64,000 bases of DNA, taken from Opitutales bacterium (lineage in GTDB: Bacteria > Verrucomicrobiota > Verrucomicrobiia > Opitutales > UBA2987). The stretch is taken from positions 288,001 through 352,000 of the forward strand of contig CBDDEL010000017.1 of assembly GCA_965226885.1 (NCBI GenBank). The letters are read 5' to 3'. Below the pieces are notes generated by a model, which did no database searches, was not told where the DNA came from, and saw nothing but the letters and a program-made list of their open reading frames with translations. Numbering within the stretch: the stretch's first letter is position 1; every line of letters begins with the position of its first letter. The position numbers and the translations under genes were made by a program. This document shows, in pieces, positions 1 through 12,560 of this stretch.

Positions 1-282
1 GGTAGGTATCTCCTTCAGGGCGCTGTCTACCCGAATGATTCTTTTACGCTGCAATCGCACGATGTCATCACCAAATGCCTGACCTTGCTTGGATTGCACA
101 ATTACGAACCAAGACACCTTGGGATGGCTCTCGATCTGGTATATAAAAACCAGCAGAAGCATCCTTTTTTTGAACTGGCGGGACCGCGATTTCCTCTCAC
201 CGCGGATGGGGTGACCGAGGCTATGGGCGCTTTGCACCGAAAAGAGGGAATCCGGCCCATCGTGGAGCCCTGCGCTCAGTAA
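1..282 (+). CDS. 3' part of zinc-binding alcohol dehydrogenase, phosphonate-catabolism-associated (HpnZ/TIGR03366-like); starts before window
   Basis: Frame 1 is open from base 1 (GRYLLQGAVYPND...CLTLLGLHNYEPRHL); G-x-HNYEPRHL is typical of this MDR subfamily; lies upstream of phnX-like and phnA genes. Confidence 0.7.
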   Translation, partial: GRYLLQGAVYPNDSFTLQSHDVITKCLTLLGLHNYEPRHLGMALDLVYKNQQKHPFFELAGPRFPLTADGVTEAMGALHRKEGIRPIVEPCAQ

Positions 283-320
283 CTCTAATGATTTAGAAAA
301 ATGTAACCCAGGAGGCGGAT

Positions 321-1196
321 ATGCCATTAGTGAGCATAAATCGGATATTGGCTGAGGCAGCCGAAGAAGGCTATGCGGTAGGTGCCTTTAACCCCGTTGA
401 CTATGCTTCAATGAAAGCGATCGTGCACGCTGCGGAGGAAGAAAATGCTCCTGTCATTGTGCAAATATCAGCCAAAACGGTGCGCTATTATGGGCATGAG
501 ACATTGGCCATGTGGATGCGGGAATTGGCAGAAAAATCCACTATCCCGGTAGTGCTTCATCTTGACCACGGGAAGGAACTGGAGATGATCCGGCGCTGCA
601 TTGAAACCGGGTGGACCTCTGTCATGATCGATGCCTCGCACCTACCCTTCGAGCAAAATCTTGCCATGTCCAGAGAAGTTGTAGAAATGGCCCCAGCGGC
701 TGGTGTGGGCGTAGAGGCGGAATTGGGAGAAATCGTAGGGGTCGAAGAAGAAATTTCAGTTAACGAGGAGGACGCCCATTTGGCCGACCCGGACAAGGCG
801 GAGATTTTTTGCCGGGAACTTGAATTGGGTGTTTTCGCCCCGGCTATCGGCACCGCTCATGGGATCTATAAGGGAACGCCCAAAGTCGCTTTCGATTTGA
901 TCGAGGAGGTCTACCGCCGCACAGCCACTCCCCTTGCCCTCCATGGGGGCACCGGATTGTCCGACGATATTATTCAGCGCTGTATCCGTTCAGGTTGCGC
1001 CAAGGTAAATATTTCTACTCAATTAAAGCACGCGTTTGTCGACGGGTTTTCCGATTATCACAAGGCTAATCCCGATGACTACGAACCGTTAAAAGTGCTG
1101 GAGGCTCAATTTGAATTTATGAAACAGTTTTTGCGGAAAAAAATCCGTCAATTCGGCGGATCGGGAAAGGGTCGGGAATTAACCGCTGTAATGTGA
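321..1196 (+). CDS. class II fructose/tagatose-bisphosphate aldolase family protein
   Basis: HLDHG, SVMIDAS, VEAELG, GTAHG, LHGGTG and KVNI motifs; GGAGG RBS. Confidence 0.93.
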   Translation: MPLVSINRILAEAAEEGYAVGAFNPVDYASMKAIVHAAEEENAPVIVQISAKTVRYYGHETLAMWMRELAEKSTIPVVLHLDHGKELEMIRRCIETGWTSVMIDASHLPFEQNLAMSREVVEMAPAAGVGVEAELGEIVGVEEEISVNEEDAHLADPDKAEIFCRELELGVFAPAIGTAHGIYKGTPKVAFDLIEEVYRRTATPLALHGGTGLSDDIIQRCIRSGCAKVNISTQLKHAFVDGFSDYHKANPDDYEPLKVLEAQFEFMKQFLRKKIRQFGGSGKGRELTAVM

Positions 1197-1939
1197 AAGC
1201 ATTAATCTTTGATTGTGACGGTGTGCTCGTCGATACCGAGCGGGATGGACATCGCAGGGCCTTTAATCGCGCATTTGCCCGAAAAGGGCTGGAGGCAAAA
1301 TGGAGTGTCGATGTTTATGGTCAACTATTGGCCATAGCGGGCGGCAAGGAACGCATGCGGCATTACTTCGATCATGCCGGTTGGCCGCCGGGGCTAAAGG
1401 ATCGCGAATCTTTCATAAAGGAGATGCATGCGCTTAAAACGGACTTCTTCATGAAAATCATCAAAGCGGGAGAACTGCCCTTGCGCAGCGGGGTTGCCCG
1501 ATTGATTGACGAAGCCATAGAGGCCGGCATTAAAATGGCAGTATGTTCCACCTCCCATGAGCGCTCCGTAAATCTGATTGTGGAGAAGTTGCTCGGTCCG
1601 CATAGACAAGCGAAATTCGAGGCCATTCTGGCCGGAGATGTCGTTACCCAAAAGAAACCAAACCCGGAGATTTACCTGCTTGCCCTGCGGAAACTCGGCA
1701 TAAAGGCAGATCAATGCGTTGTCATAGAAGACAATCGAAATGGTCTTCTGGCGGCCAAAGCCGCCGGCATACAATGTCTCGTAACCACCAGCGCCTACAG
1801 CATGGGAGAAGATTTTTCAGAGGCTGATAAGGTGATTGAGGAATTGGGCGATCCTCCGGGAAACTATGTCCGCCTTTCCGATTTAATGTTGATTAACGGA
1901 AACGACCAAGATCAAATTTCAACCGTTCGCTCAAGATGA
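1193..1939 (+). CDS. CbbY-like HAD-IA phosphatase
   Basis: FDCDGVLVDTERDGHR, GGKERM, KKPNPEIY and IED motifs; 4-bp overlap with the aldolase. Confidence 0.9.
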   Translation: MKALIFDCDGVLVDTERDGHRRAFNRAFARKGLEAKWSVDVYGQLLAIAGGKERMRHYFDHAGWPPGLKDRESFIKEMHALKTDFFMKIIKAGELPLRSGVARLIDEAIEAGIKMAVCSTSHERSVNLIVEKLLGPHRQAKFEAILAGDVVTQKKPNPEIYLLALRKLGIKADQCVVIEDNRNGLLAAKAAGIQCLVTTSAYSMGEDFSEADKVIEELGDPPGNYVRLSDLMLINGNDQDQISTVRSR

Positions 1940-1955
1940 CAGGCATTGGATTGAA

Positions 1956-3293
1956 TTGTTAATGATGCAGAACCCGGAGAAAGAGGCCGCCAAAGACCCG
2001 CGCTACCAGCGCTGGCGGGCTATAACATTCGGCATTACCTGGTTGGCTTACGTTGGATTTTATTTTACCCGGAAATCTTTCCCGGTGGCCAAGATCGGCA
2101 TCCTGGAAGATCCTACAATCGAGATCACGAAGGCATCGTTGGGTTGGATTGATGGGCTCTACGGAGTTGCCTATGCTCTCGGGCAATTCATCTGGGGAAT
2201 GTGCGGAGACAAGTTCGGACCCCGCACAGTGGTCCTCACCGGCATGTTTTTTTCCGTAATAGTTGCAGTGGCCATGGGAATGTCCTCCACCGTGATTCTG
2301 TTCGGGGCGCTCTTTTTTTGCCAGGGCCTTTGTCAATCCACCGGGTGGGCGCCCCTGACCAAGAATGTCAGCTATTGGTTTTCCAGAAAAGAGCGGGGCC
2401 GAACTTATGGGTTTTGGGCCACCAACTATGCCATTGGGGGAATGCTGGCCAGTGCCTTCGCCGGTTCTATGGCCCTGGTTTTTTTGAATTGGCGCTTCGC
2501 TTTTTTCATGCCGGCAATTGTTCTGGCCGTTATTTGGTTGCTGTTTCTGCTTTTGCAGAAAAACCGGCCTGAGGATATCGGCCTCCCCTCCATTGAGGAT
2601 TACCACGGAGAAACAGTTGACGTTTTAGCCAAGGATGAAACGCCGGAAGATGAACCTGAAGGTTCCTGGAAGGTGATTGGTGAAGTATTCAGGAACCCGG
2701 TCATTCTTTCTCTCGGCGCAGTATATTTTTTTCTTAAGCCGACCCGTTATGCCATCCTTTTCTGGGGACCCCTCATCATAAACGATAAGTTGGGAACCAA
2801 TATCGGTGAATCGGCCATTATCAGCGCAGCATTTGAAGCGGCAGGTCCTTTAGGTGTCATCTTTGCCGGTTATGCGACGGACAAATGGTTTCATTCGCGC
2901 CGCATCCCAATAACCGTTATGGGATTATCAATTCTAGCGATCATCCTCTTTCTCTTCAACGGCCTGACGGAGGATGGAGGAAAGGGAACCATGGTTTTGC
3001 TACTCTTTGCCATGGGTTTTTTCCTATTCGGCCCGGATGCCATGATCTCATCGGCTTCGGCGGTGGACTTTGGAACGAAAAAGGGCGCCGCATCCTCGGC
3101 CGGATTGATTAATGGGATGGGTTCAACGGGGCAGATCCTGGGCTTGTCTTTACCCGGCATCATCTGGGCTCATTACGGGTGGGGAGTGCTCTTTAATTGC
3201 CTGGGAGCGTTTGTTCTGCTAGCGATTCTTCTCCTACTGCCAATGTGGAATGCATTGCCTGCAACTGTGAAAAAAGAAACTGATTCCAGGTGA
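1956..3293 (+). CDS. MFS transporter, organophosphate:Pi antiporter (GlpT/UhpT-like) family
   Basis: About 12 hydrophobic segments; YFTRK, WFSRKERG and GLINGMG motifs; start may be 1962 or 1965. Confidence 0.88.
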   Translation: MLMMQNPEKEAAKDPRYQRWRAITFGITWLAYVGFYFTRKSFPVAKIGILEDPTIEITKASLGWIDGLYGVAYALGQFIWGMCGDKFGPRTVVLTGMFFSVIVAVAMGMSSTVILFGALFFCQGLCQSTGWAPLTKNVSYWFSRKERGRTYGFWATNYAIGGMLASAFAGSMALVFLNWRFAFFMPAIVLAVIWLLFLLLQKNRPEDIGLPSIEDYHGETVDVLAKDETPEDEPEGSWKVIGEVFRNPVILSLGAVYFFLKPTRYAILFWGPLIINDKLGTNIGESAIISAAFEAAGPLGVIFAGYATDKWFHSRRIPITVMGLSILAIILFLFNGLTEDGGKGTMVLLLFAMGFFLFGPDAMISSASAVDFGTKKGAASSAGLINGMGSTGQILGLSLPGIIWAHYGWGVLFNCLGAFVLLAILLLLPMWNALPATVKKETDSR

Positions 3294-3766
3294 TTCAGCA
3301 CAATAACATGAAATTAAGGAAAGAAAAAATATGAGTAAAATCAGTATGGTCATGTTCGATCTCTCAGGGACCACTGTGTATGATGACACGGGCGTTCGGG
3401 ACTGCCTCTACAAAGCGGCCGTGGAGTTCAACCTGCAAACGACACCCGATGAGATACTCCTGCATATGGGCACCAACAAAATCCACCTCTATCAGTTTCT
3501 CATCGCCCGGTCACAAGGAAAGAAGGTCGAAATTGAAGATTTTGAAAAAACGATCTACCCGGAAACCCTGGATGAAGCCATGAAGGTCTTCCACCGTTAT
3601 TCGGAGATCATGGTCAACCATTACCGCAATGAAGTTCGCGAAATAGAGGGATCTGCAGACACCTTCCGGTGGTGTCATGATAACGGCATAAAAGTAGCCA
3701 CTGAAATGGACGGGGAAAACTGGACAGTGGAATAAGGTGGTCTTGAACCACTAAATCCGCTAACCT

Positions 3767-4072
3767 ATGAATGTTATTAAATCACGAAAGAGAAGACAAT
3801 ACAGTGCTGAGTTTAAAGCCCGAGTGGCCCTGGAAGCCATCAGGGGCGCTCATACCATCAACGAGATCGCCGGTCGTTTTGAGGTGCATCCCAACCAGGT
3901 GACCCAATGGAAGAAGCAGCTTTTGCAGGGAGCAACGGAGCTGTTTTCGCGCCAGCGGCAGACTCTCAGCAAGGACAACGAGACGGAAAAAGATCACCTT
4001 TACCAGGAGATTGGAAAGCTGAAAGTAGAATGCGATTGGCTAAAAAAAAAGTCTGAACAATTCGGTTGGTGA
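3767..4072 (+). CDS. IS3 transposase OrfA (HTH)
   Basis: RRQYSAEFKARVALEA...VHPNQVTQWKKQ. Confidence 0.9.
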   Translation: MNVIKSRKRRQYSAEFKARVALEAIRGAHTINEIAGRFEVHPNQVTQWKKQLLQGATELFSRQRQTLSKDNETEKDHLYQEIGKLKVECDWLKKKSEQFGW

Positions 4073-4082
4073 GAGGCGCAAG

Positions 4083-4946
4083 ATGGTGCAACCACTTCAA
4101 GGAAAAATCAGTATCGGCAGGCAATGTCAGTTGCTGGGGCTGGCCCGCGGCAGCTATTACTATCGGGCCCGTGCCCAGTGCGAGCAGAACGTTCTCTACA
4201 TGCATCGCATGGATGAGCTCTACACCCAATATCCGTTTTTTGGTTCTCGCCGGATGACCCAGTGGCTGCGTCGAGAGGGCCATGCAGTGGGACGAGGCCG
4301 CATCCAGCGGCTCATGCGCCAAATGGGCCTGGAGGCTATTTATCCGCGTCGAAACTTGAGCCAGGGGCACCGGCAGCACCGCATTTTCCCTTATCTGCTG
4401 CGGGGTTTGGCGGTCGAGCGGCCCGACCAGGTATGGTGCAGCGACATCACTTACCTGCGGCTGAGCCGAGGATTCCTTTTCTTGACCGTGGTGTTGGACT
4501 GGTTCAGCCGCTACGTGTTGAGCTGGCAGCTTTCCAACACCCTGGAGAGCCGCTTCTGTGTGCTCGCCCTGGAGGAAGCTCTGAGGCGGGCCCAACCTCA
4601 AATCTTCAACACCGATCAAGGCAGCCAGTTTACCGGCAGCGAGTTCACCTCGGTGCTGGGGCAAGCCGGGGTGCGCATCAGCATGGACGGGCGTGGCCGC
4701 TACCTGGACAACATATTTGTTGAACGCTTTTGGAGAACCCTCAAGTATGAAGACATTTACCTGCGCGAATACGCCACGGCAAAGGAAGCCAGCGAAGGGA
4801 TAGCCCGCTACCTGGACTTCTACAACCACCTGCGCCCCCACCAAGCCCTGGGCTACCGGACCCCGGCCGAAGTCCATGCAATCGGAGCAAAACCAACCTC
4901 CCCGCCAATACAGCTTGCGGGCACCTGCGTGCCCGTCTTTGGCTAA
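4083..4946 (+). CDS. IS3 transposase OrfB (DDE/rve)
   Basis: WCSDITY, NTDQGSQF and DNIFVERFWRTLKYE motifs. Confidence 0.92.
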   Translation: MVQPLQGKISIGRQCQLLGLARGSYYYRARAQCEQNVLYMHRMDELYTQYPFFGSRRMTQWLRREGHAVGRGRIQRLMRQMGLEAIYPRRNLSQGHRQHRIFPYLLRGLAVERPDQVWCSDITYLRLSRGFLFLTVVLDWFSRYVLSWQLSNTLESRFCVLALEEALRRAQPQIFNTDQGSQFTGSEFTSVLGQAGVRISMDGRGRYLDNIFVERFWRTLKYEDIYLREYATAKEASEGIARYLDFYNHLRPHQALGYRTPAEVHAIGAKPTSPPIQLAGTCVPVFG

Positions 4947-5430
4947 GGACAAAATATATTTTTAAAAAATAATATGAACACGATTTCCACCTTAATCCCA
5001 CGTCAAAATTGTCCAAACAACCCCGTCCACTTCACACCGATACTGGCTTTCATCGCGATGTTACGGAGGCCATCATGGACGGACTCGGCTGGGTGCGCGA
5101 TGGTTTGGTGGATATCTCGGTCGATGTCGAGCATGCTCCCGGTGAGCGCGGGAGGCCGGCGCCCTTTATGATATACTACGCCATGATGCAATTGGATGTG
5201 CAGAGCGTCCATGAAGTGCTTAAAATAGGCGATACTCCGGCCGATATGCTGGAAGGTTACAACGCCGGATGCCGTGGCATAGTCGGAGTCCTCAGCGGCC
5301 CGCGGCCGGTGGAAGCTTTTGGAAAATGCCGTCACACCCATATAATACCCAGCGTAAGGGATCTGCCCGATCTAATCAATTCGGAGTTTTCCTAAAGCAA
5401 ATATTAATTCGTTCATTGAGAAACCATAAA

Positions 5431-6783
5431 ATGAAAATCCGTTATCTAATATTACTAACGATACCAGTTATACTTGGAGCCGAGCTTTTCTCTCAGAATT
5501 CGATCGGCTACACTCGTTTCATGCAGGGACCTATGGTGGGGGCCGTTGGGCCGAATGAAATTACCATCTGGGGCCGCCTCAATGGAACCTTTAGCGGGGA
5601 AATTGAATACGATACTTCAAAAGATTTCAGCCAATCGAAAAAACAGGCTCTTGCCGCCACCAAAGAAGAGGATTATACTTTAAGGTGGAAGCTGACTGGT
5701 TTAAAACCTGACACTCGTTATTATTATCGATTCAAGGTCGAGGGCGGGACTCCGAGATACCAACGCGGCCTGCCGCCTTTTTATACCAAGACCGCTCCGC
5801 CCGTGGGGAAAAAGGGGCACTTCAGCATCGCGTATGGTTCGTGCCCACGCTACCAACTGGACCGTACACAGGAGATTTGGACAACGGTTCTGCGGTTTCA
5901 ACCCGATCTGTTTTTCTGGATTGGCGATAATATTTATGGCGATTCGCAGGACCCGGAAATTCTGGCCGAGGAATGGCGCCGCCAGCGCGATGTCGCTACC
6001 CTTCAACCAGTCATTCATACCATCCCACAACTGGCAACCTGGGACGACCATGATTTCGGTCTCAACGATTATGACCGGCGGCATCCCCGCAAGGCCGATG
6101 CGCTCAAGGTATTCAAACGTTACTGGGCGAATCCGGCTTATGGCCTGCCGGGAACACCGGGCGTTTTTTTCAAATACACCTACGGCGGCATAGACTTCTT
6201 TTTTATCGACTGCCGCTACTATCGCGACCCCAATAAAGAACCGGACCATCCCGGCAAAACATTTCTCGGCCAAGAACAACGTGCCTGGCTTCAACAATCG
6301 CTTAAAAATAGTGCAACTCCTTTCAAAGTAATCATTTCGGGCAGCGGCTGGTCGAATGCCAAAGGACCGGGGGGAGATTCCTGGTCTTCCTATCTACATG
6401 AACGCGACGCCCTCTTCGATTTCATTCGAGACAGCCAAATAAGCGGGGTAATACTGCTTTCCGGAGATACCCATAAAGGTGAGCTCAATGCCATACCTTG
6501 GTCGGAAAAGGGTGGTTACGATTTCTACGATCTGGTCAGTTCGCCCCTCGGCCAGACACCGGGACAGGCCAATCCTAACCGCAAACCGGAAATACGCATT
6601 CGACCAGTTTTTACCCGGGAGGATAATTTCGGTCTGTTGGAGTTTGATTTAACCGGTGAGCCGGTGCTTCGTTTCAATCTCATCGGGACAAGCGGAAGAG
6701 TAGCTTGGAGACCGTTTGTTATCCGGGCCAACGAACTGGTCAATGGAGTTGTCTCCTGGAAAGATAAAATCTCAAGATATTAA
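5431..6783 (+). CDS. alkaline phosphatase D (PhoD) family metallophosphoesterase, exported
   Basis: GSC, GDNIYGD, WDDHDFG, DCRYYR and SGDTH motifs; signal-peptide-like start at ATG 5431. Confidence 0.88.
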   Translation: MKIRYLILLTIPVILGAELFSQNSIGYTRFMQGPMVGAVGPNEITIWGRLNGTFSGEIEYDTSKDFSQSKKQALAATKEEDYTLRWKLTGLKPDTRYYYRFKVEGGTPRYQRGLPPFYTKTAPPVGKKGHFSIAYGSCPRYQLDRTQEIWTTVLRFQPDLFFWIGDNIYGDSQDPEILAEEWRRQRDVATLQPVIHTIPQLATWDDHDFGLNDYDRRHPRKADALKVFKRYWANPAYGLPGTPGVFFKYTYGGIDFFFIDCRYYRDPNKEPDHPGKTFLGQEQRAWLQQSLKNSATPFKVIISGSGWSNAKGPGGDSWSSYLHERDALFDFIRDSQISGVILLSGDTHKGELNAIPWSEKGGYDFYDLVSSPLGQTPGQANPNRKPEIRIRPVFTREDNFGLLEFDLTGEPVLRFNLIGTSGRVAWRPFVIRANELVNGVVSWKDKISRY

Positions 6784-6843
6784 ATGGCTCGCCTTCACTT
6801 TTGGCAGGAACCTTATTGGGAGCGTATCCAATAAATATAGCTT

Positions 6844-8103
6844 GTGACTGTAAATTCTCCGTCCACTCAATCTTTCACTGTAAACGAGCGGGATTACCAG
6901 CCGCCGGCCTGTCCCTTGGCCGTTATATGCATCGATGGATGCGCGGATGATTACCTGAACGTCTCTATCGAACGCGGTTGCATGCCCCATGTTGCAAGAA
7001 TGATTGCTCAGGGTTTTCGGCGATTGGCAAGAGGCGCGCTGCCTTCATTTACGAATGTTAACAACGCTTGCATCGTCACGGGCGTTCCACCTTCGATGAC
7101 CGGCATATGCGGTAATTTTTTTCTCAATCCGGAAACAGGTAAGGAAGAAATGATGAATTCGGCCGCTTATCTGCGATGCGAAACCATTCTTGCCGCAGCC
7201 GCCCGCAGCGGACGCAAAGTGGCCATGGTTACGGCCAAAGAAAAACTATTATCCCTGCTCGGAAAAAATCTCGAAGGAATAGCCTTTTCGGCGGAGAAAG
7301 CCCATGAGGCCACCGAATCTACCCACGGAATCGGGGACCTGGAACGCAGGGTGGGATTCCCCACTCCCAATATTTACAGCGCGGAGGCAAGCCTCTATGT
7401 TTTACGAGCAGGAGTTGCCTTGGTGAAAGAGGGCAAAGCAGATTTTCTCTACCTTTCCCTGACCGATTTTATGCAGCACAAATATGAGCCCGCCCATCCA
7501 GCCTCTCTTGATTTTTATAAATCGATAGATGTCGAAATCGGGAAGCTTCTCGATCTCGGAGTTTTGTTGGGAGCGACCGCAGACCACGGGATGAACGCAA
7601 AACAAAACGCGGATGGCACACCCAACGTTATTTATCTGGAAACCATTTTGCGGGAAAAATTCGGGGAGGGCATTCGAGTGATCTGTCCCATTACCGATCC
7701 CTATGTGCGGCATCACGCTGCCTTGGGCTCCTATGTGGAAGTCTATTTACCACCCGCGGTTTCTGCGCACAAGGCGGCAAAAGCCATACAGCTTATCATA
7801 CAGCTTATAAAAGGGGTAACGGAAGTTTACGACCGCCCGGCCGCCGCTGAATCTCTACAACTGCCAGCGGATCGGATCGGGGATCTGGTAGTCCTGGCAG
7901 CCAAAAACACGGTGTTGGGCCGAAAACCTGTCGATCATGATCTATCTCATGTCAAGGAAGGTCTCAGAACGCATGGGGGCAGATTTGAGGAAATGGTCCC
8001 ACTCCTATTGTCGAAGCCTCTGCAAATACCTGCACAAAAACGTTTTTCAACTGGAGGTATTAGAAACTTCGATATTTTTGAAATGGCCTGCAACTGCCAT
8101 TGA
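6844..8103 (+). CDS. phnA: phosphonoacetate hydrolase
   Basis: FTVNERDY, ICIDG, PSFTNVNN, LSLTDFMQH, ADHGMN, PITDPYVRHH and LRTHGG motifs. Confidence 0.9.
   Translation: MTVNSPSTQSFTVNERDYQPPACPLAVICIDGCADDYLNVSIERGCMPHVARMIAQGFRRLARGALPSFTNVNNACIVTGVPPSMTGICGNFFLNPETGKEEMMNSAAYLRCETILAAAARSGRKVAMVTAKEKLLSLLGKNLEGIAFSAEKAHEATESTHGIGDLERRVGFPTPNIYSAEASLYVLRAGVALVKEGKADFLYLSLTDFMQHKYEPAHPASLDFYKSIDVEIGKLLDLGVLLGATADHGMNAKQNADGTPNVIYLETILREKFGEGIRVICPITDPYVRHHAALGSYVEVYLPPAVSAHKAAKAIQLIIQLIKGVTEVYDRPAAAESLQLPADRIGDLVVLAAKNTVLGRKPVDHDLSHVKEGLRTHGGRFEEMVPLLLSKPLQIPAQKRFSTGGIRNFDIFEMACNCH
7785..7808. repeat. 12-bp tandem duplication in phnA (in frame)
   Basis: catacagcttat x2, giving IQLI-IQLI. 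Confidence 0.9.
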
Positions 8104-8169: not shown

Positions 8170-9165
8170 ATGAATATTCCCGATCAGGAGAAGTTCAATG
8201 TTGAACTTATTAACGAGAGGAAGCTGGAAGTTACACCTGGCGAAACCCTGCTGGAGGCGTCACTCAAGGCTGGAATTGACTACCTTCATGCTTGCGGCGG
8301 CCAGGCAAAATGTTCCACTTGCCGGATCCTGGTGCAAAAAGGGGAGGAATTTCTTACACCTCCCACCGAAGCGGAAAAAGCGCTGGCCGCCCGCCAAAAA
8401 TTTCCCCCGGAAATTCGCCTTGCCTGCCAGGTAAAAGTTAAGGGCGGCCCCATCCGGGTCCATCGCCTCGTGCGCGATAAACTTGATCTCGACCTGATGT
8501 GCTGCCAGGAAGCTGTTTCCTCGGCCAAAAGTCTTGGGTGCGAAAAGGAGTTGGCTCTGATTTTCCTCGATATTCGTGATTTTACACCTTTTGCCCAAAC
8601 CCGCCTGCCTTTCGATGTAATTCATATCCTCAATCGGTTTCACCGCATGGCGCAAAACACTATCGAGCAAAAGAACGGCTCGGTGGTCGAGGTGGCCGGT
8701 GACGGGCTCTACGCCGCTTTCGGCCTGGAATGCCCATTATGCAATGCAGTCGCGGATGGCGTCCAGGCAGGACATGCGGTATTGAAAAACATAGAAACTT
8801 TCAATGAAACTTACCTGAAGCCCTATTTCGACCACCGGTTGCGGATTGGCATAGGCATTCACACTGGCAAGGTCATTTATGGGCAGCTCGGAATCGGTGT
8901 AGGAGGTGCCGCCAGTGTCATCGGCTATCCGGTAAACCTCGCCGCTCGTGTCGAGGCGGCCACCAAATCCCTCAATAACGACTTCCTGTTAACCGAAGCG
9001 GCATTTGTAACACTGCCCGAACCTCGACCCAAAACTATCTATAAAACCGTCAAATTGAAAGGCGTCACCGATCCGGTTGTTTTACACCTTTTAGGCAATC
9101 CTTATGAACTCGAAAGTAAAAGAAAAAGTGGAAAAACCGAACATCCTGTACATTCTGGCGGATGA
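8170..9165 (+). CDS. 2Fe-2S ferredoxin-class III nucleotidyl cyclase fusion
   Basis: HACGGQAKCSTC...RLACQ; FLDIRDFT, GDG, GIGIHTG and VNLAARVE motifs. Confidence 0.9.
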   Translation: MNIPDQEKFNVELINERKLEVTPGETLLEASLKAGIDYLHACGGQAKCSTCRILVQKGEEFLTPPTEAEKALAARQKFPPEIRLACQVKVKGGPIRVHRLVRDKLDLDLMCCQEAVSSAKSLGCEKELALIFLDIRDFTPFAQTRLPFDVIHILNRFHRMAQNTIEQKNGSVVEVAGDGLYAAFGLECPLCNAVADGVQAGHAVLKNIETFNETYLKPYFDHRLRIGIGIHTGKVIYGQLGIGVGGAASVIGYPVNLAARVEAATKSLNNDFLLTEAAFVTLPEPRPKTIYKTVKLKGVTDPVVLHLLGNPYELESKRKSGKTEHPVHSGG

Positions 9166-10432
9166 CCTCGGCTGGGGCGATGTCAGTTTTCACGGCTCCC
9201 CCATCAGGACTCCGAATATTGACCGTCTGGCCGGAGAAGGCATCGAATTACGTCTGCCCTTCTGCCCTATGTGTACGCCCACCCGTGTCTGCCTGTTGAC
9301 CGGCCGCCACCCCGGTCGTTTCGGGGCGCATGCCACCAAGCCCTGCAACCCGCCCGTCCTGCCCGACGGTTATGCGACCCTGGCCACTGTTTTGCGCGAA
9401 CAAGGCTACGACACGGGCATCTTCGGCAAATGGCACCTGGGCTCGTCCCCGCAATACGGCCCCAATCAATTCGGTTTCAACAGTTCCTATGGGAGTCTCG
9501 CCGGGGGGGTCGATCCCTACAATCATCGTTACAAGCAGGGAGAGTTTTCCGTCACCTGGCACCGCAACGGCGAGCTGGTAGAAGAGACAGGGCACGTTAC
9601 CGACATGATTGTGAAAGAAGCCCGGGAATGGATCAAGAGTCGCGACCGGCCCTGGTTTTGCTATGTGCCCTTTACGGCCGTGCATGTGCCGATCAAGCCC
9701 GCCCAAGCCTGGTTGGATAGGTATGAATCAGAGCGCTATGATGAAGATCCTTTAAAAGACCGCTCCTATAAAAAATATGCCGCCTATGCGAGCCACATGG
9801 ATTATGCCATCGGCCAATTGCTGGAATCCCTGGAGCGAACCTGCCAGAGAGAAAACACGATTATCGTATTCAGCTCCGATAACGGCGCCATTAACGATTG
9901 CCCGCTGGACAAAACCGATTTGTATCCTGGCTGGCAGGAAGAATACCCGCGACTGGGCTCGAATGGTCCCTTGCGAGGGGTTAAAGCACAACTCTACGAA
10001 GGCGGAATACGCACCCCCACCATAATCAACTGGCGAATCCGGCTGCCTTCAGGAACTATGGACCACCCTGTGCATATGGTGGACTGGATGCCCACTTTTT
10101 CGCATCTTACGGGCGCCGAACCGCAAGACGACCCACGTTGGGATGGCATCGACATCTGGCCGTTATTATCGGAAACGGAGGCGCAACCCGAGGAACGGGA
10201 ATTATTTTGGAGTTTCAGAGGCGGCACAAAACTGGGCATGAGGCGGGGAGATTGGAAAATGATCTCAATCCAGGATGAAGGCGAAACTGCGGTGGAGCTT
10301 TTCAATATCGCAAACGATCCCTATGAAAAAAAGGATATCTCCGCCGATTACCCCATTTTAGTGGGAGAACTCACGGAGGCAATCCGGGAACAGCGACAAC
10401 TCGACGACACATCCAACCGAGACTTGTTATAA
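9104..10432 (+). CDS. arylsulfatase (FGly-dependent)
   Basis: ADDLGWGD, CTPTR, GKWHLG, SSDNG and YEGGIR motifs. Confidence 0.92.
   Translation: MNSKVKEKVEKPNILYILADDLGWGDVSFHGSPIRTPNIDRLAGEGIELRLPFCPMCTPTRVCLLTGRHPGRFGAHATKPCNPPVLPDGYATLATVLREQGYDTGIFGKWHLGSSPQYGPNQFGFNSSYGSLAGGVDPYNHRYKQGEFSVTWHRNGELVEETGHVTDMIVKEAREWIKSRDRPWFCYVPFTAVHVPIKPAQAWLDRYESERYDEDPLKDRSYKKYAAYASHMDYAIGQLLESLERTCQRENTIIVFSSDNGAINDCPLDKTDLYPGWQEEYPRLGSNGPLRGVKAQLYEGGIRTPTIINWRIRLPSGTMDHPVHMVDWMPTFSHLTGAEPQDDPRWDGIDIWPLLSETEAQPEERELFWSFRGGTKLGMRRGDWKMISIQDEGETAVELFNIANDPYEKKDISADYPILVGELTEAIREQRQLDDTSNRDLL
9253..9268. repeat. 8-bp tandem duplication just before the sulfatase catalytic Cys
   Basis: tctgccct x2. Confidence 0.8.
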
Positions 10433-10929
10433 TCGAGGAATATTTTTCCAATGAGTTAGAAACAGGAATATCCCGATAAATTCAATGCCGAACCCAAAGG
10501 CTGTAAGATCTACACCTTTATCGGCTTGCTCGGAACGGGCGTTTTCAGCTATCAAGCGTATAATTGGATTGTTTGAGTATTATGAATAAGCATATTTTCC
10601 TGGTAATTTCGATTTGCTTGATTGCTTGCGCATATGGCTTTGGCGGAGATTTTAGAAACAACAATTGGGGAGACTCGAAATCGGATGTTCGCAAAGCGGA
10701 AAAATCACCCTTTCACCACGAACGAAGCAACGAATTGGCATACTTCAATTCCGAAATCCCGGGTATTATTGGAGGCGTGATTTACTATTTTAAAGACGAC
10801 CGATTGGACGGTGGAAAATTTGTTTCCAGAAACAGCAATCGAACCCCTGAGGAAACCTACCGTGATTACCTTAAACTTCAAACCTACTTTTGATGTGCAC
10901 TGGAAAAAGTGGACACGAGATTCTCCTAA

Positions 10930-11238
10930 ATGGAGAATCGAAGCATGGGAAGAAGACGCAGTATAGAGTTCAAAAATGAGGCAGTTCAACTGATGATACT
11001 CGATGGTCTGAGCGCCACCGAGGTATCGACCAAACTTGGGGTCAACACCAACCAATTGTATAGGTGGAAGAGGCTCTATCTGGACGATCAGCAGGGCGAA
11101 GCCACCTCAAAGCGACAGAGCAGTCCGAAGGAGATGGCGGCCGAGATAGATCGTCTTCGCAAAGAGCTGCGCCGCTCGGAGCGGATCAACCAGATACTAA
11201 AAAAAACGGTGGGCTACTTTGCCAAGGACGAACAATGA
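10930..11238 (+). CDS. IS3 transposase OrfA
   Basis: RRRSIEFKNEAVQL...LGVNTNQLYRW; A8 run near the 3' end. Confidence 0.88.
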   Translation: MENRSMGRRRSIEFKNEAVQLMILDGLSATEVSTKLGVNTNQLYRWKRLYLDDQQGEATSKRQSSPKEMAAEIDRLRKELRRSERINQILKKTVGYFAKDEQ

Positions 11239-12152
11239 AGTACCAGTTTGTCAAAGACAACGAGGGGCGCTTCAAGATCGAGGAAATATGCTCGGCGATG
11301 GGGATTTGTCGCAGTGGCTATTACTGCTGGAGGCACCGAGCGCCCTCGGCCCGGCGGATCGAGGACGAGGGAATCAAGGGGGCGATCCTGAAGGTACACA
11401 AAGAGGCCAAGGGCCGCTATGGGCATCGGCCAATGCACCGCCATCTGAAGGATGATGAGGGCATCGATTGCGGCCGTGACCGGGCTCTGCGTCTGATGCG
11501 TGAAATGGGAATCAAAAGCACCCAGAGTAAACGCTTTAAGCCATTAAAAACCAACAGTAACCATCCCTATGGTTACAGCCCCAATGTGCTTAAAAAGCAT
11601 GGCCAGCCGACCCATATCGACGAGGTCTGGGTGGCGGACACGACCTACCTACGGACCCTGGCCGGTTGGATGTACTTGGCCACGGTGATGGACCTGTTCA
11701 GCCGACGCCTGCTGGGCTGGAGCGTTTCCAACCACAACGACGCGAAGCTGGTTGGCAAGGCCCTCAAAGCCGCGGCCATGACCCGCGGCACACTGCGCAC
11801 CGGGATTATTCATCACAGCGATCGGGGCAGCCCCTACGCCAGCGACGACTATCAGAGGCTGGTCTCTGAACTAGGCATGAAGCCGAGCATGAGCGCCCAA
11901 GGCAACTGCTACGACAACGCGGCCATGGAATCGTTCTACGGCCGCTTCAAGACCAGCACGATTCGAGGCCGCCACTTTGCCGACGAGCGCGAACTGCGAT
12001 CAACTGTCTTCGAATACGTGGAAATCTTCTACAACCGATATCGCAAACATTCCTCTCTGAGTTACCAAAGCCCAGTCCAATTCGAGGAAAATATTTGCCC
12101 CCCATGGGGGGCAACGAGAAAACAAAACCCTTTACCAAAACAAGCCGCCTGA
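11235..12152 (+). CDS. IS3 transposase OrfB
   Basis: WVADTTY, HHSDRGSPY and NCYDNAAMESF motifs; ATGA overlap with orfA. Confidence 0.9.
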   Translation: MKYQFVKDNEGRFKIEEICSAMGICRSGYYCWRHRAPSARRIEDEGIKGAILKVHKEAKGRYGHRPMHRHLKDDEGIDCGRDRALRLMREMGIKSTQSKRFKPLKTNSNHPYGYSPNVLKKHGQPTHIDEVWVADTTYLRTLAGWMYLATVMDLFSRRLLGWSVSNHNDAKLVGKALKAAAMTRGTLRTGIIHHSDRGSPYASDDYQRLVSELGMKPSMSAQGNCYDNAAMESFYGRFKTSTIRGRHFADERELRSTVFEYVEIFYNRYRKHSSLSYQSPVQFEENICPPWGATRKQNPLPKQAA

Positions 12153-12560
12153 CACACTAATCAATAAACAATGAATATAAGAGAATCCCGTGTCCAACAA
12201 ATCCAGTACACGTCACTTTGATCTAAAATCCGGGTTTCACCAAAAAGAAGATTGGCAATGGAACAATGAGATTTATAAAGGCATGCCTGAGAAAACCGGA
12301 GAAGCGATCGCCAAAGGCCATCTCAAAATTATATCCCATTGGCAATACCAACACTGAGGTCAAGCTCGTCATAGAAAAGAGGCGTGAGAATATATCCGTC
12401 CGTGCTTTTTTTACAATCACTGAAAATGAGGCTGAATAATCCTTTAATTTTCAATCACGGATTGCACGAATAATTTTTTTTAAATGACGCTTTCTCTATT
12501 TGGGAAATCTGTGGTTTTATTTATAAAGCATTAGGGCTCAATTAAAAACCTGTATTAGGC

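Follow-up and report, generated by a model that had tools for sequence, protein, structure and literature searches.

Phosphonates are a large marine and soil phosphorus pool, and the bacterial route that starts from 2-hydroxyethylphosphonate (HEP) was described only in 2026. As reported there, PbfG, a zinc alcohol dehydrogenase of family pf00107, oxidises HEP directly to phosphonoacetaldehyde (PAA) with a kcat/KM of 88,500 per M per s, and PAA is then cleaved by PhnX (Piazza et al., Protein Sci 2026, PMC13576164). In several phyla, Verrucomicrobiota among them, the pbfG gene is described as adjoining phnX or phnY-phnA, and phnW is often missing (PMC13576164). A second point of reference is AepP, a permease for 2-aminoethylphosphonate (2AEP) that belongs to the organophosphate:phosphate antiporter (OPA) family of the major facilitator superfamily (MFS) and is also reported from Verrucomicrobia (Murphy et al., Nat Commun 2021, PMC8316502). 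Here we describe seven genes, all on the + strand, at positions 1-8103 of a 64,000-nt stretch of an Opitutales genome (G000:C17:288001-352000, hereafter the window), in which genes of these kinds stand together with a class II aldolase and a CbbY-type phosphatase. For the locus as a whole, the explanation we lean towards is a PbfG/PhnX-type cluster joined by a separate aldolase-CbbY module that would act by condensation.

Gene identities come from hidden Markov model (HMM) scans against curated family cut-offs, together with matches to PDB structures, in a genome that is 96.3% complete. An earlier note on this DNA had described seven tightly spaced, co-oriented genes forming a phosphonate-catabolic operon. 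Every one of those identities holds in the HMM scans (Table 1), the intergenic gaps run from -4 to 66 nt, and phosphonate catabolism is borne out by the families of the alcohol dehydrogenase (ADH1), the PhnX-like hydrolase (PhnXl), PhnA, the OPA-type MFS transporter and PhoD. When the three family models named in that note were run, PhnA, which is present as a single copy in the whole genome, passed TIGR02335, but TIGR03366 and TIGR03351 were best-matching models whose cut-offs were not reached. The note's statement that the usual clusters use PhnW/PhnY and ABC uptake has been overtaken by the reports of MFS uptake through AepP in 2021 (PMC8316502) and of entry through PbfG in 2026.

The ADH1 gene begins 857 bases upstream of the window (full gene G000:C17:287143-288282, window -857 to 282). 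The full protein scores 312.8 bits with TIGR03366, below the curated threshold of 328.1, and a second paralog, ADH2, which is only 32% identical to ADH1, scores 298.8 bits and is also below it; TIGR03366 is the best family for both by a wide margin. By spacing, ADH1 residues C52/S54/R63/H73/H132/C174/N320 are candidate counterparts of PbfG C45/S47/R56/H66/H124/C166/N298, and ADH2 residues C63/S65/R74/H84/H143/C185/N330 are candidate counterparts of the same seven zinc and predicted substrate residues. ADH2 lacks the four-cysteine structural zinc site of ADH1 and of threonine dehydrogenases, and keeps the catalytic zinc ligands and the predicted phosphonate-binding residues.

The PhnXl gene of the window is split within codon 124 by a 1,333-bp element of the IS3 family of insertion sequences (IS). 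The element carries two transposase frames (orfA 3767-4072 and orfB 4083-4946), ends in 25-nt imperfect inverted repeats that are 76% complementary and follow the TG...CA pattern (TGAAATGG... / ...CCACTTCA), and is flanked by a 3-bp target duplication, CAC, at 3699-3701 and 5035-5037. The insertion is clean, with no other lesion seen in the gene pieces. Aligned with an intact paralog, the first piece covers residues 4-126 (91% identity) and the second residues 128-245 (89%), and between them they keep the DLSGT nucleophile motif, the MGTNK cap lysine motif, GRPAP and GDTPADMLEG. The earlier note had listed a PhnX-like HAD protein with the cap lysine; the lysine motif is indeed there, but the gene is not intact and the IS3 element had been overlooked. 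Because this element interrupts the gene, the C-P hydrolase step is dead in the window copy.

The genome carries three paralogous clusters, and the other two have intact PhnXl genes (C14:497812-498543 and C17:750420-751151). An intact paralog scores 168.7 bits with TIGR03351 (cut-off 218.9) and 108.1 with TIGR01422 (cut-off 220), and is thus below both. In an alignment with B. cereus PhnX (2IOF), an intact orthologue keeps the Asp nucleophile, the cap Schiff-base Lys, GRP and the GDTxxD motif. An IS-free joint (3698 to 5035) was found in contigs of three DNA runs, and RNA contigs covered the IS only. Since at least six nearby sites differ from the window, the IS-free contigs most likely come from paralogous copies or from relatives, and we rejected them as a sign of polymorphism at the window locus.

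From these families a pathway can be proposed. The exported PhoD would release phosph(on)ate head groups, and the AepP-like antiporter, judging from its family, would bring in a C2 phosphonate against phosphate. The PbfG-like dehydrogenase would oxidise HEP to PAA, as expected from homology to the characterised enzyme, and PhnXl, with all PhnX catalytic motifs kept, would hydrolyse the C-P bond of PAA to give acetaldehyde and phosphate. PhnA would deal with phosphonoacetate. When aligned with the GlpT structure (1PW4), the MFS transporter keeps R45 and R269, and has Q in place of K80 and Y in place of H165; HEP is a more likely substrate here than 2AEP. The PhoD-like open reading frame (ORF) opens at 5269, overlapping the 3' end of PhnXl, and M55 at 5431 precedes a hydrophobic N-terminus, so the true start is probably 5431 rather than 5269. 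The family scan found no PhnW above cut-off anywhere in the genome. The best PhnW match is a 120-codon fragment with an in-frame TAG (G000:C17:457810-458181; 132.7 bits, cut-off 400.8), which may be the remnant of an aminoethylphosphonate transaminase gene.

We compared gene context across 80 ADH-centred loci obtained with an ADH-profile search. PhnXl lies in the same locus as the ADH, mostly adjoining it, in 33 of the 80, and these loci span at least seven phyla (Verrucomicrobiota, Planctomycetota, Alphaproteobacteria, Chloroflexota, Desulfobacterota, Spirochaetota and NC10). Their PhnXl proteins are 66-100% identical to that of locus L007. The loci nearest to the window are from Opitutales and Verrucomicrobia assemblies, with ADH identity of up to 90%. 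PhnCDE-type phosphonate ABC transporters neighbour ADH and PhnXl in L039 and L040, and an Acidobacteriota locus (L057) has PhnCDE, a distant PhnX, an ADH and a PhnA-like gene. In L009, genes for a PhnW-like protein and a class-III aminotransferase occur with the same hydrolase and no aldolase. Among 250 other genomes sampled from the phylum, neither the CbbY-like nor the PhnXl protein was found in any at E < 1e-50. This joint rarity fits acquisition as one cassette, and the hydrolytic phosphonate cluster of the window, rare as it is, was probably gained by horizontal transfer.

As the earlier note had it, an aldolase and a CbbY gene make unusual passengers in a phosphonate operon. Their linkage to phosphonate genes, the absence of which would on the note's own terms have refuted its reading, recurs in other genomes. 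The pair stands beside ADH and PhnXl in 6 of the 80 ADH loci. Two of these, L005 and L007, have the gene order of the window (ADH-aldolase-CbbY-MFS-PhnXl), and the other four are Paracoccaceae loci with a LysR gene followed by aldolase-CbbY-ADH-PhnXl, at 61-65% identity. Another order in Verrucomicrobia is aldolase-CbbY-ADH2-MFS-PhnXl. The pair is also linked to phosphonate genes in L084, in L121 and in the two further clusters of the present genome; overall, the gene orders come from Verrucomicrobia, Paracoccaceae and one unplaced metagenome contig. L121 reads PhnW-like, PhnXl, GntR, an unknown gene, MFS, aldolase, CbbY; both it and L084 have the aldolase, CbbY, MFS and PhnXl genes and no ADH. 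A transaldolase-like ORF in L121 (28.9 bits in Pfam) shows no BLASTP similarity to the transaldolase-family protein of L020 (see below) and was not relied on.

A search of metagenome contigs with the aldolase profile as query recovered 80 loci. The aldolase is followed on the same strand by a CbbY-like gene in 71 of them, and of the nine without one, seven are contig ends. A likeness to the window was confined to L084 and, probably, L086. We tallied the context of 87 loci with such an aldolase, 31 of which were too short to classify. DhaK and/or DhaL genes accompany the aldolase in 40 (12 of them also with a pyrroloquinoline quinone (PQQ) dehydrogenase), acetoin-type E1/E2 genes in 6 and the hydrolase in 10. 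In one case the two enzymes are a single 551-aa ORF (L096:3352-5007, identical in L095), with the aldolase at residues 5-280 and a CbbY-like HAD domain at 315-510. This fusion suggests that the two enzymes act in sequence. In an aldolase tree made by a quick method, with SH-aLRT support only, the phosphonate-linked aldolases are interspersed with those from other contexts, occupying four or more branches and requiring 5 changes. The pair is thus a generic module, recruited into phosphonate clusters on more than one occasion.

Several of the other contexts deserve a description of their own. The aldolase subfamily, a CbbY-like gene, DhaL and DhaK form a widespread operon (L088-L163; for example L102:6436-9734, L118:7545-11345 and L157), which often adjoins a PQQ-dependent dehydrogenase, a LacI-type regulator or malate synthase G. 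The function of this operon seems to be undescribed. These operons place close CbbY homologues well outside Calvin-cycle operons. In L112:6027-11050 and L146:6014-10740 the aldolase and CbbY-like genes are interleaved with acetoin-type E1-alpha, E1-beta and E2 genes and adjoin PfkB kinase, SIS and AP_endonuc_2 genes.

In one Paracoccaceae genome (L010/L020) a divergent 403-aa transaldolase-family protein with its catalytic Lys kept is encoded directly before ADH and PhnXl, and an AP_endonuc_2 gene follows. Three other Paracoccaceae genomes (G002-G004) encode this transaldolase as well (86-89% identical), at a distance of 11-22 kb from aldolase-CbbY-ADH-PhnXl. Two of these copies have in-frame stops (one TGA in G003; one TGA and one TAA in G004) and may be broken. 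The idea that the transaldolase is a straight swap for the aldolase-CbbY pair, which would have been an argument for condensation, was dropped on account of the three Paracoccaceae genomes that have both; the transaldolase is an additional component. It should also be noted that the 'unk365' ORFs in the Paracoccaceae loci overlap an opposite-strand HAD-IIA gene and are probably spurious.

At the sequence level, the aldolase falls below every NCBIfam equivalog cut-off for fructose-1,6-bisphosphate (FBP) or tagatose-1,6-bisphosphate (TBP) aldolases (309.5 vs 423; 309 vs 343) and passes only the broad subfamily model TIGR00167 (276 vs 215.6). It keeps the zinc-binding His residues and the catalytic Asp, and the HLDH, TAHG and LHGGTG segments vary little or not at all. 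The family signature consists of QxS[AV]KT, NIST, and YEPL where FBP aldolases have DPR; the window protein reads YEPLK against YDPRK in 7NC7, and [EN]P[LI] stands at the DPR position in every common variant listed for 86 family members. A Lys-Thr after Ser50 is invariant, and NIST has Ser where FBP aldolases have Asp or Asn. The phosphatase is far nearer to the xylulose-1,5-bisphosphate (XuBP)-specific CbbYA (E 8e-75) than to any other solved structure, and the cap motifs DGHRxAFN, GGKER, KT and LPLR are kept in all contexts (76 family members). The genome has no RuBisCO (no PF00016 match), and the neighbours of the CbbY-like gene are phosphonate genes. It has been stated in review that CbbY orthologues occur in photosynthetic organisms only (PMC9833046), a view contradicted by the close CbbY homologues of bacteria that lack RuBisCO.

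How might the pair work within such a cluster? The aldolase could join dihydroxyacetone phosphate (DHAP) to a short anionic aldehyde, either PAA or its ester twin glycolaldehyde phosphate, to give a product of the XuBP type, from which CbbY would then strip the 1-phosphate. With a 1-phosphate phosphatase placed after the aldolase, or joined to it in one protein, the arrangement fits condensation and then dephosphorylation, and not cleavage. XuBP is reported to have been made in vitro by an aldolase from DHAP and glycolaldehyde phosphate (PMC10212915), and PAA is a shorter C-P analogue of the latter. We therefore propose, tentatively, that the pair is a module that condenses DHAP with a C2 aldehyde phosph(on)ate and then dephosphorylates the XuBP-type compound at position 1; we hold this with distinctly less confidence than the reading of the locus as a whole.

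A broader version of the proposal is more speculative still. In this version, an unrecognised module of heterotrophs makes XuBP on purpose and yields xylulose 5-phosph(on)ate, and CbbY is not only a RuBisCO repair enzyme. The substrate in phosphonate clusters would be PAA or glycolaldehyde phosphate, and the latter would come from 2-hydroxyethyl phosphate or phosphoethanolamine through the same ADH or a transaminase. In the operons with DhaK/DhaL and a PQQ dehydrogenase, which are far more common, glycolaldehyde would be assimilated after phosphorylation. We consider this possible, though doubtful.

Several observations weigh against a PbfG/PhnX-type cluster with a condensing module. ADH1 (312.8 vs 328.1) and the intact PhnXl (168.7 vs 218.9; 108 vs 220) are below the cut-offs of their families. 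A phosphate antiporter yields zero net phosphorus per exchange. Condensing PAA with DHAP makes a larger phosphonate and frees no phosphonate phosphorus, which is hard to rationalise for scavenging, and there is no obvious source of glycolaldehyde phosphate among the cluster genes. Most relatives of the pair (DhaK/DhaL in 40 of the 87 loci, E1/E2 in 6) are without phosphonate genes, so the job of the pair must be generic, and 25 of the 33 PhnXl loci have neither the aldolase-CbbY pair nor the transaldolase. The reading also presumes that the DPR arginine missing here (R331 in the E. coli FBP aldolase) is the residue that binds the distal C6 phosphate. As to the literature, the matches listed for glycolaldehyde phosphate dealt, judging by titles and the opening lines of abstracts, with prebiotic chemistry, plant synthetic biology and unrelated fields, apart from the note on XuBP synthesis. 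Those listed for an aldolase in phosphonate degradation included, judged from the listing, no relevant work. The word 'aldolase' is absent from the main text of PMC13576164 and from the PbfC/D, PbfF and AepP papers as far as their text was available.

The best surviving alternative is that the pair is an ordinary FBP aldolase with an FBP 1-phosphatase, which would convert triose phosphates to fructose 6-phosphate and phosphate, either for gluconeogenesis on C2/C3 compounds or for phosphate recycling, and would accompany catabolic operons that supply C2/C3 carbon. DhaK/DhaL in 40 of the 87 loci (12 with PQQ) would then resemble a trio of dihydroxyacetone kinase, FBP aldolase and fructose-1,6-bisphosphatase (FBPase), and the scatter of phosphonate-linked aldolases over the tree, with its 5 changes, agrees with this explanation. 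CbbY is reported to hydrolyse FBP weakly (PMC9833046). The genome has no class I, II or III FBPase, but this is not decisive because a 422-aa phosphofructokinase is present and may be reversible. Against this explanation, the whole aldolase family lacks the DPR arginine that presumably serves the C6 phosphate, and the aldolase is below every FBP-aldolase equivalog cut-off. The phosphatase is far nearer to the XuBP-specific CbbYA than to other solved proteins, and its occurrence in none of the 250 sampled genomes of the phylum indicates that it is not a housekeeping enzyme there. We consider this explanation unlikely.

Slightly less probable again is the salvage or detoxification of a neutral aldehyde, with DHAP and acetaldehyde or glycolaldehyde condensed to 5-deoxyxylulose 1-phosphate or xylulose 1-phosphate and then dephosphorylated to a free ketose. 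The pair occurs in the context of PhnX-type cleavage, of acetoin-type E1/E2 complexes and of PQQ alcohol dehydrogenases, each of which can give rise to acetaldehyde or glycolaldehyde. The loss of the distal-phosphate arginine from the aldolase points the same way, and the curators of TIGR03351 are said to have proposed glycolaldehyde as the hydrolase product. However, the phosphatase keeps the cap motifs of bisphosphate-specific CbbY, including GGKER, and the clusters encode no downstream enzyme for 5-deoxy-ketoses. The PhnW-like and class-III aminotransferase genes of L009, found with the same hydrolase and without an aldolase, also speak against salvage.

The model of the earlier note was of a kind with sulfoglycolysis. 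An imported phosphono-sugar or polyhydroxy-phosphonate would be oxidised by the ADH, the aldolase would cut it to DHAP and a C2 phosphonate, and PhnXl and PhnA would finish the job. The link between the pair and PhnXl genes in several genomes agrees with this model, as does the divergent transaldolase beside ADH and PhnXl in one Paracoccaceae genome. IolJ, an aldolase of PF01116, reportedly releases the carboxylate twin of PAA, malonic semialdehyde, along with DHAP. Most of the evidence runs the other way, and we regard the model as very improbable. The ADH family acts on HEP itself (as reported in PMC13576164), and L084 and L121 have aldolase, CbbY, MFS and PhnXl without an ADH. A 1-phosphate phosphatase would destroy the substrate of the aldolase, and the aldolase-then-phosphatase fusion fits synthesis. 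No kinase or isomerase was seen among the annotated genes of the three clusters of this genome, L005, L007 and L012 (Verrucomicrobia and aldolase-type Paracoccaceae loci); the putative sugar isomerase/epimerase AP_endonuc_2 occurs only in transaldolase-type and some Desulfobacterales clusters. That the relatives of the pair mostly stand in non-phosphonate contexts also counts against the phosphono-sugar cleavage mechanism. To our knowledge there is no natural phosphono-sugar, and the literature matches listed included no paper on the catabolism of the C3 phosphonates dihydroxypropylphosphonate and phosphonolactaldehyde.

Least probable of all is that an aldolase-CbbY-MFS block without functional link was inserted by chance between ADH and PhnXl and then copied along: the genome is full of IS copies that move DNA, its three clusters are paralogs and not independent events, and L004, from the same taxonomic order, has ADH followed directly by PhnXl and no aldolase, CbbY or MFS, but differing gene orders in Verrucomicrobia, Paracoccaceae, L121 and L084 all bring the pair to PhnXl, and on the tree the aldolases so arranged belong to four or more separate branches.

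Table 1. Genes and elements at the start of the window, with related features elsewhere (numbers without a prefix are window positions; ADH2 is the second ADH paralog)
Feature	Position	Strand	Evidence and remarks
ADH1, 3' end; PbfG/HpnZ-like Zn alcohol dehydrogenase	1..282	+	last 93 codons in window; TIGR03366 best match
Class II (Zn) ketose-phosphate aldolase, distinct subfamily regularly paired with CbbY-like phosphatase	321..1196	+	PF01116 E 2e-91
CbbY-type HAD-IA phosphatase	1193..1939	+	PDB 4uav E 8e-75; 4uar E 3e-47
OPA-family MFS transporter, candidate AepP-like phosphonate importer	1956..3293	+	TIGR00881 224 bits; GlpT structure 1pw4 E 2e-37
PhnXl, N-terminal piece	3331..3701	+	TIGR03351 E 6e-12; codons 1-123 and two bases of the next
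IS3-family element inside PhnXl gene	3702..5034	+	orfB NF033516 276 bits; inverted repeats; CAC duplication
PhnXl, C-terminal piece	5035..5395	+	frame picks up at 5039, past the duplicated CAC
Exported PhoD-like phosphodiesterase/phosphatase	5431..6783	+	PF09423 E 2e-28; PF16655
Phosphonoacetate hydrolase PhnA	6844..8103	+	TIGR02335 489.3 bits, cut-off 407.55 (passed)
2Fe-2S ferredoxin domain fused to class III nucleotidyl (adenylate/guanylate) cyclase	8170..9165	+	PF00111, PF00211
Cytoplasmic formylglycine-type sulfatase-family hydrolase	9104..10432	+	PF00884 E 4e-54; NF045661 50 bits
Second IS3-family element, type B	10891..12215	+	NF033516 321 bits
ADH2 paralog	L164:10150-11304 (-); L165:11538-12692; L166:5480-6634		
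Four-gene block without family assignment	L164:13590-17988; L167:87-5509		

The three clusters of the genome differ in content and condition. The C14 cluster reads four unknown genes, aldolase, CbbY, ADH2, MFS, PhnXl, a D-2-hydroxyacid dehydrogenase and PhoD, and the third cluster, on C17, is fragmented by copies of an ISNCY-type element. PhnA is found only in the window cluster. The window cluster lacks the 2-hydroxyacid dehydrogenase gene that follows PhnXl in its relatives L004, L005 and L007. In L007 the same IS type as in the window is inserted in PhoD instead of PhnXl. Four conserved genes without family assignment (about 470-810, 446, 348 and 187 aa) precede aldolase-CbbY in both other clusters, and the 446-aa protein has a weak N-terminal match to CehA/McbA metallohydrolases.

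Directly 3' of PhnA lies the ferredoxin-cyclase fusion gene, which has a counterpart in the same position in L007 at 90% identity and is a possible redox-sensing regulator of these genes. The sulfatase-family gene overlaps the cyclase gene by 62 nt. Its protein lacks a signal peptide, carries the formylglycine motif CTPTR at residue 57 and is weakly similar (50 bits) to the phosphonate-monoester/sulfate-ester hydrolase PehA. It could release phosphonates from an ester linkage.

The locus lies in a phosphorus-scavenging region of an IS-rich Opitutales genome. Upstream of the cluster, among IS copies, are TonB, a true GlpT, a HAD-IIA phosphatase, two glycerophosphodiesterases and an aquaglyceroporin. 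The glycerophosphodiester module that precedes the cluster, before the start of the window (L003:5087-11842), consists of two glycerophosphodiesterases, an aquaglyceroporin, a HAD-IIA phosphoglycolate-phosphatase-like protein and GlpT; its order is kept in L004, L005 and L007, and L007 adds an adjoining FAD-dependent oxidoreductase (PF01266).

The IS3 type that splits PhnXl is present in 47 full-length copies with 98-100% identity, and type B in more than 100 (186 BLAST pieces). Inverted type B copies bracket the block from ADH to the sulfatase (C17:285689-287016, - strand, and the copy in the window), and the upstream one ends 127 bases before the ADH gene. Besides these two hugely expanded IS3 types, the genome contains ISNCY and IS1380 copies, and such elements have interrupted or rearranged several of its genes for phosphorus scavenging.

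Taken together, the locus shows that the HEP route spreads in cassette form, along with an MFS antiporter, PhoD and PhnA, and that one genome can have several copies of it that are decayed in part. No published phosphonate pathway that we have seen explains why the aldolase-CbbY pair recurs. If it is true that the pair makes XuBP, C2 aldehyde phosph(on)ates would be assimilated by a new route, and the two reactions form a directly testable pair.

In comparison with described systems, the insertion in PhnXl is a typical member of the IS3 family, with two overlapping-frame transposase ORFs, TG...CA ends and a 3-bp duplication; it is unusual only in copy number. The transporter resembles AepP as described in PMC8316502. 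The likeness lies in a GlpT-like MFS protein (about 28-30% identical to GlpT) that is co-located with phosphonate hydrolase genes and in which the phosphate-binding arginines are kept and the glycerol-moiety residues are not.

The aldolase shares with class II FBP/TBP aldolases (PF01116; 7NC7, 8Q57, 1GVF) and with IolJ the TIM-barrel zinc fold and the His ligands, and it has the GGTG and NxST segments that bind the phosphate of DHAP. It is unlike them in its sub-cut-off scores, in YEPL for DPR, in the Lys-Thr after Ser50 and in the Ser of NIST. The phosphatase has the HAD and cap motifs of the XuBP phosphatases, Arabidopsis CbbYA (4UAV) and the R. sphaeroides enzyme (4UAR/4UAT). Unlike these, it occurs without RuBisCO or a cbb operon; its partner is a class II aldolase, with which it forms a single protein in one case.

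PhnXl shares with PhnX (B. cereus 1FEZ, 2IOF) and with TIGR03351 proteins the HAD fold, the Asp nucleophile in DxxGT, the Schiff-base lysine in MGxxK, GRP and GDTxxD. The PhnXl clade differs in being below both cut-offs and unusually conserved (66-93% identity across phyla), and the window copy is split by IS3. Finally, the cluster as a whole is like PbfG-type clusters in having a pf00107 zinc alcohol dehydrogenase beside a PAA hydrolase and/or PhnA and no PhnW, an arrangement known in Verrucomicrobiota. It is unlike them in its TIGR03351-like hydrolase, in uptake through an MFS antiporter, in the interrupted hydrolase gene, and in a genome that holds two divergent ADH paralogs.

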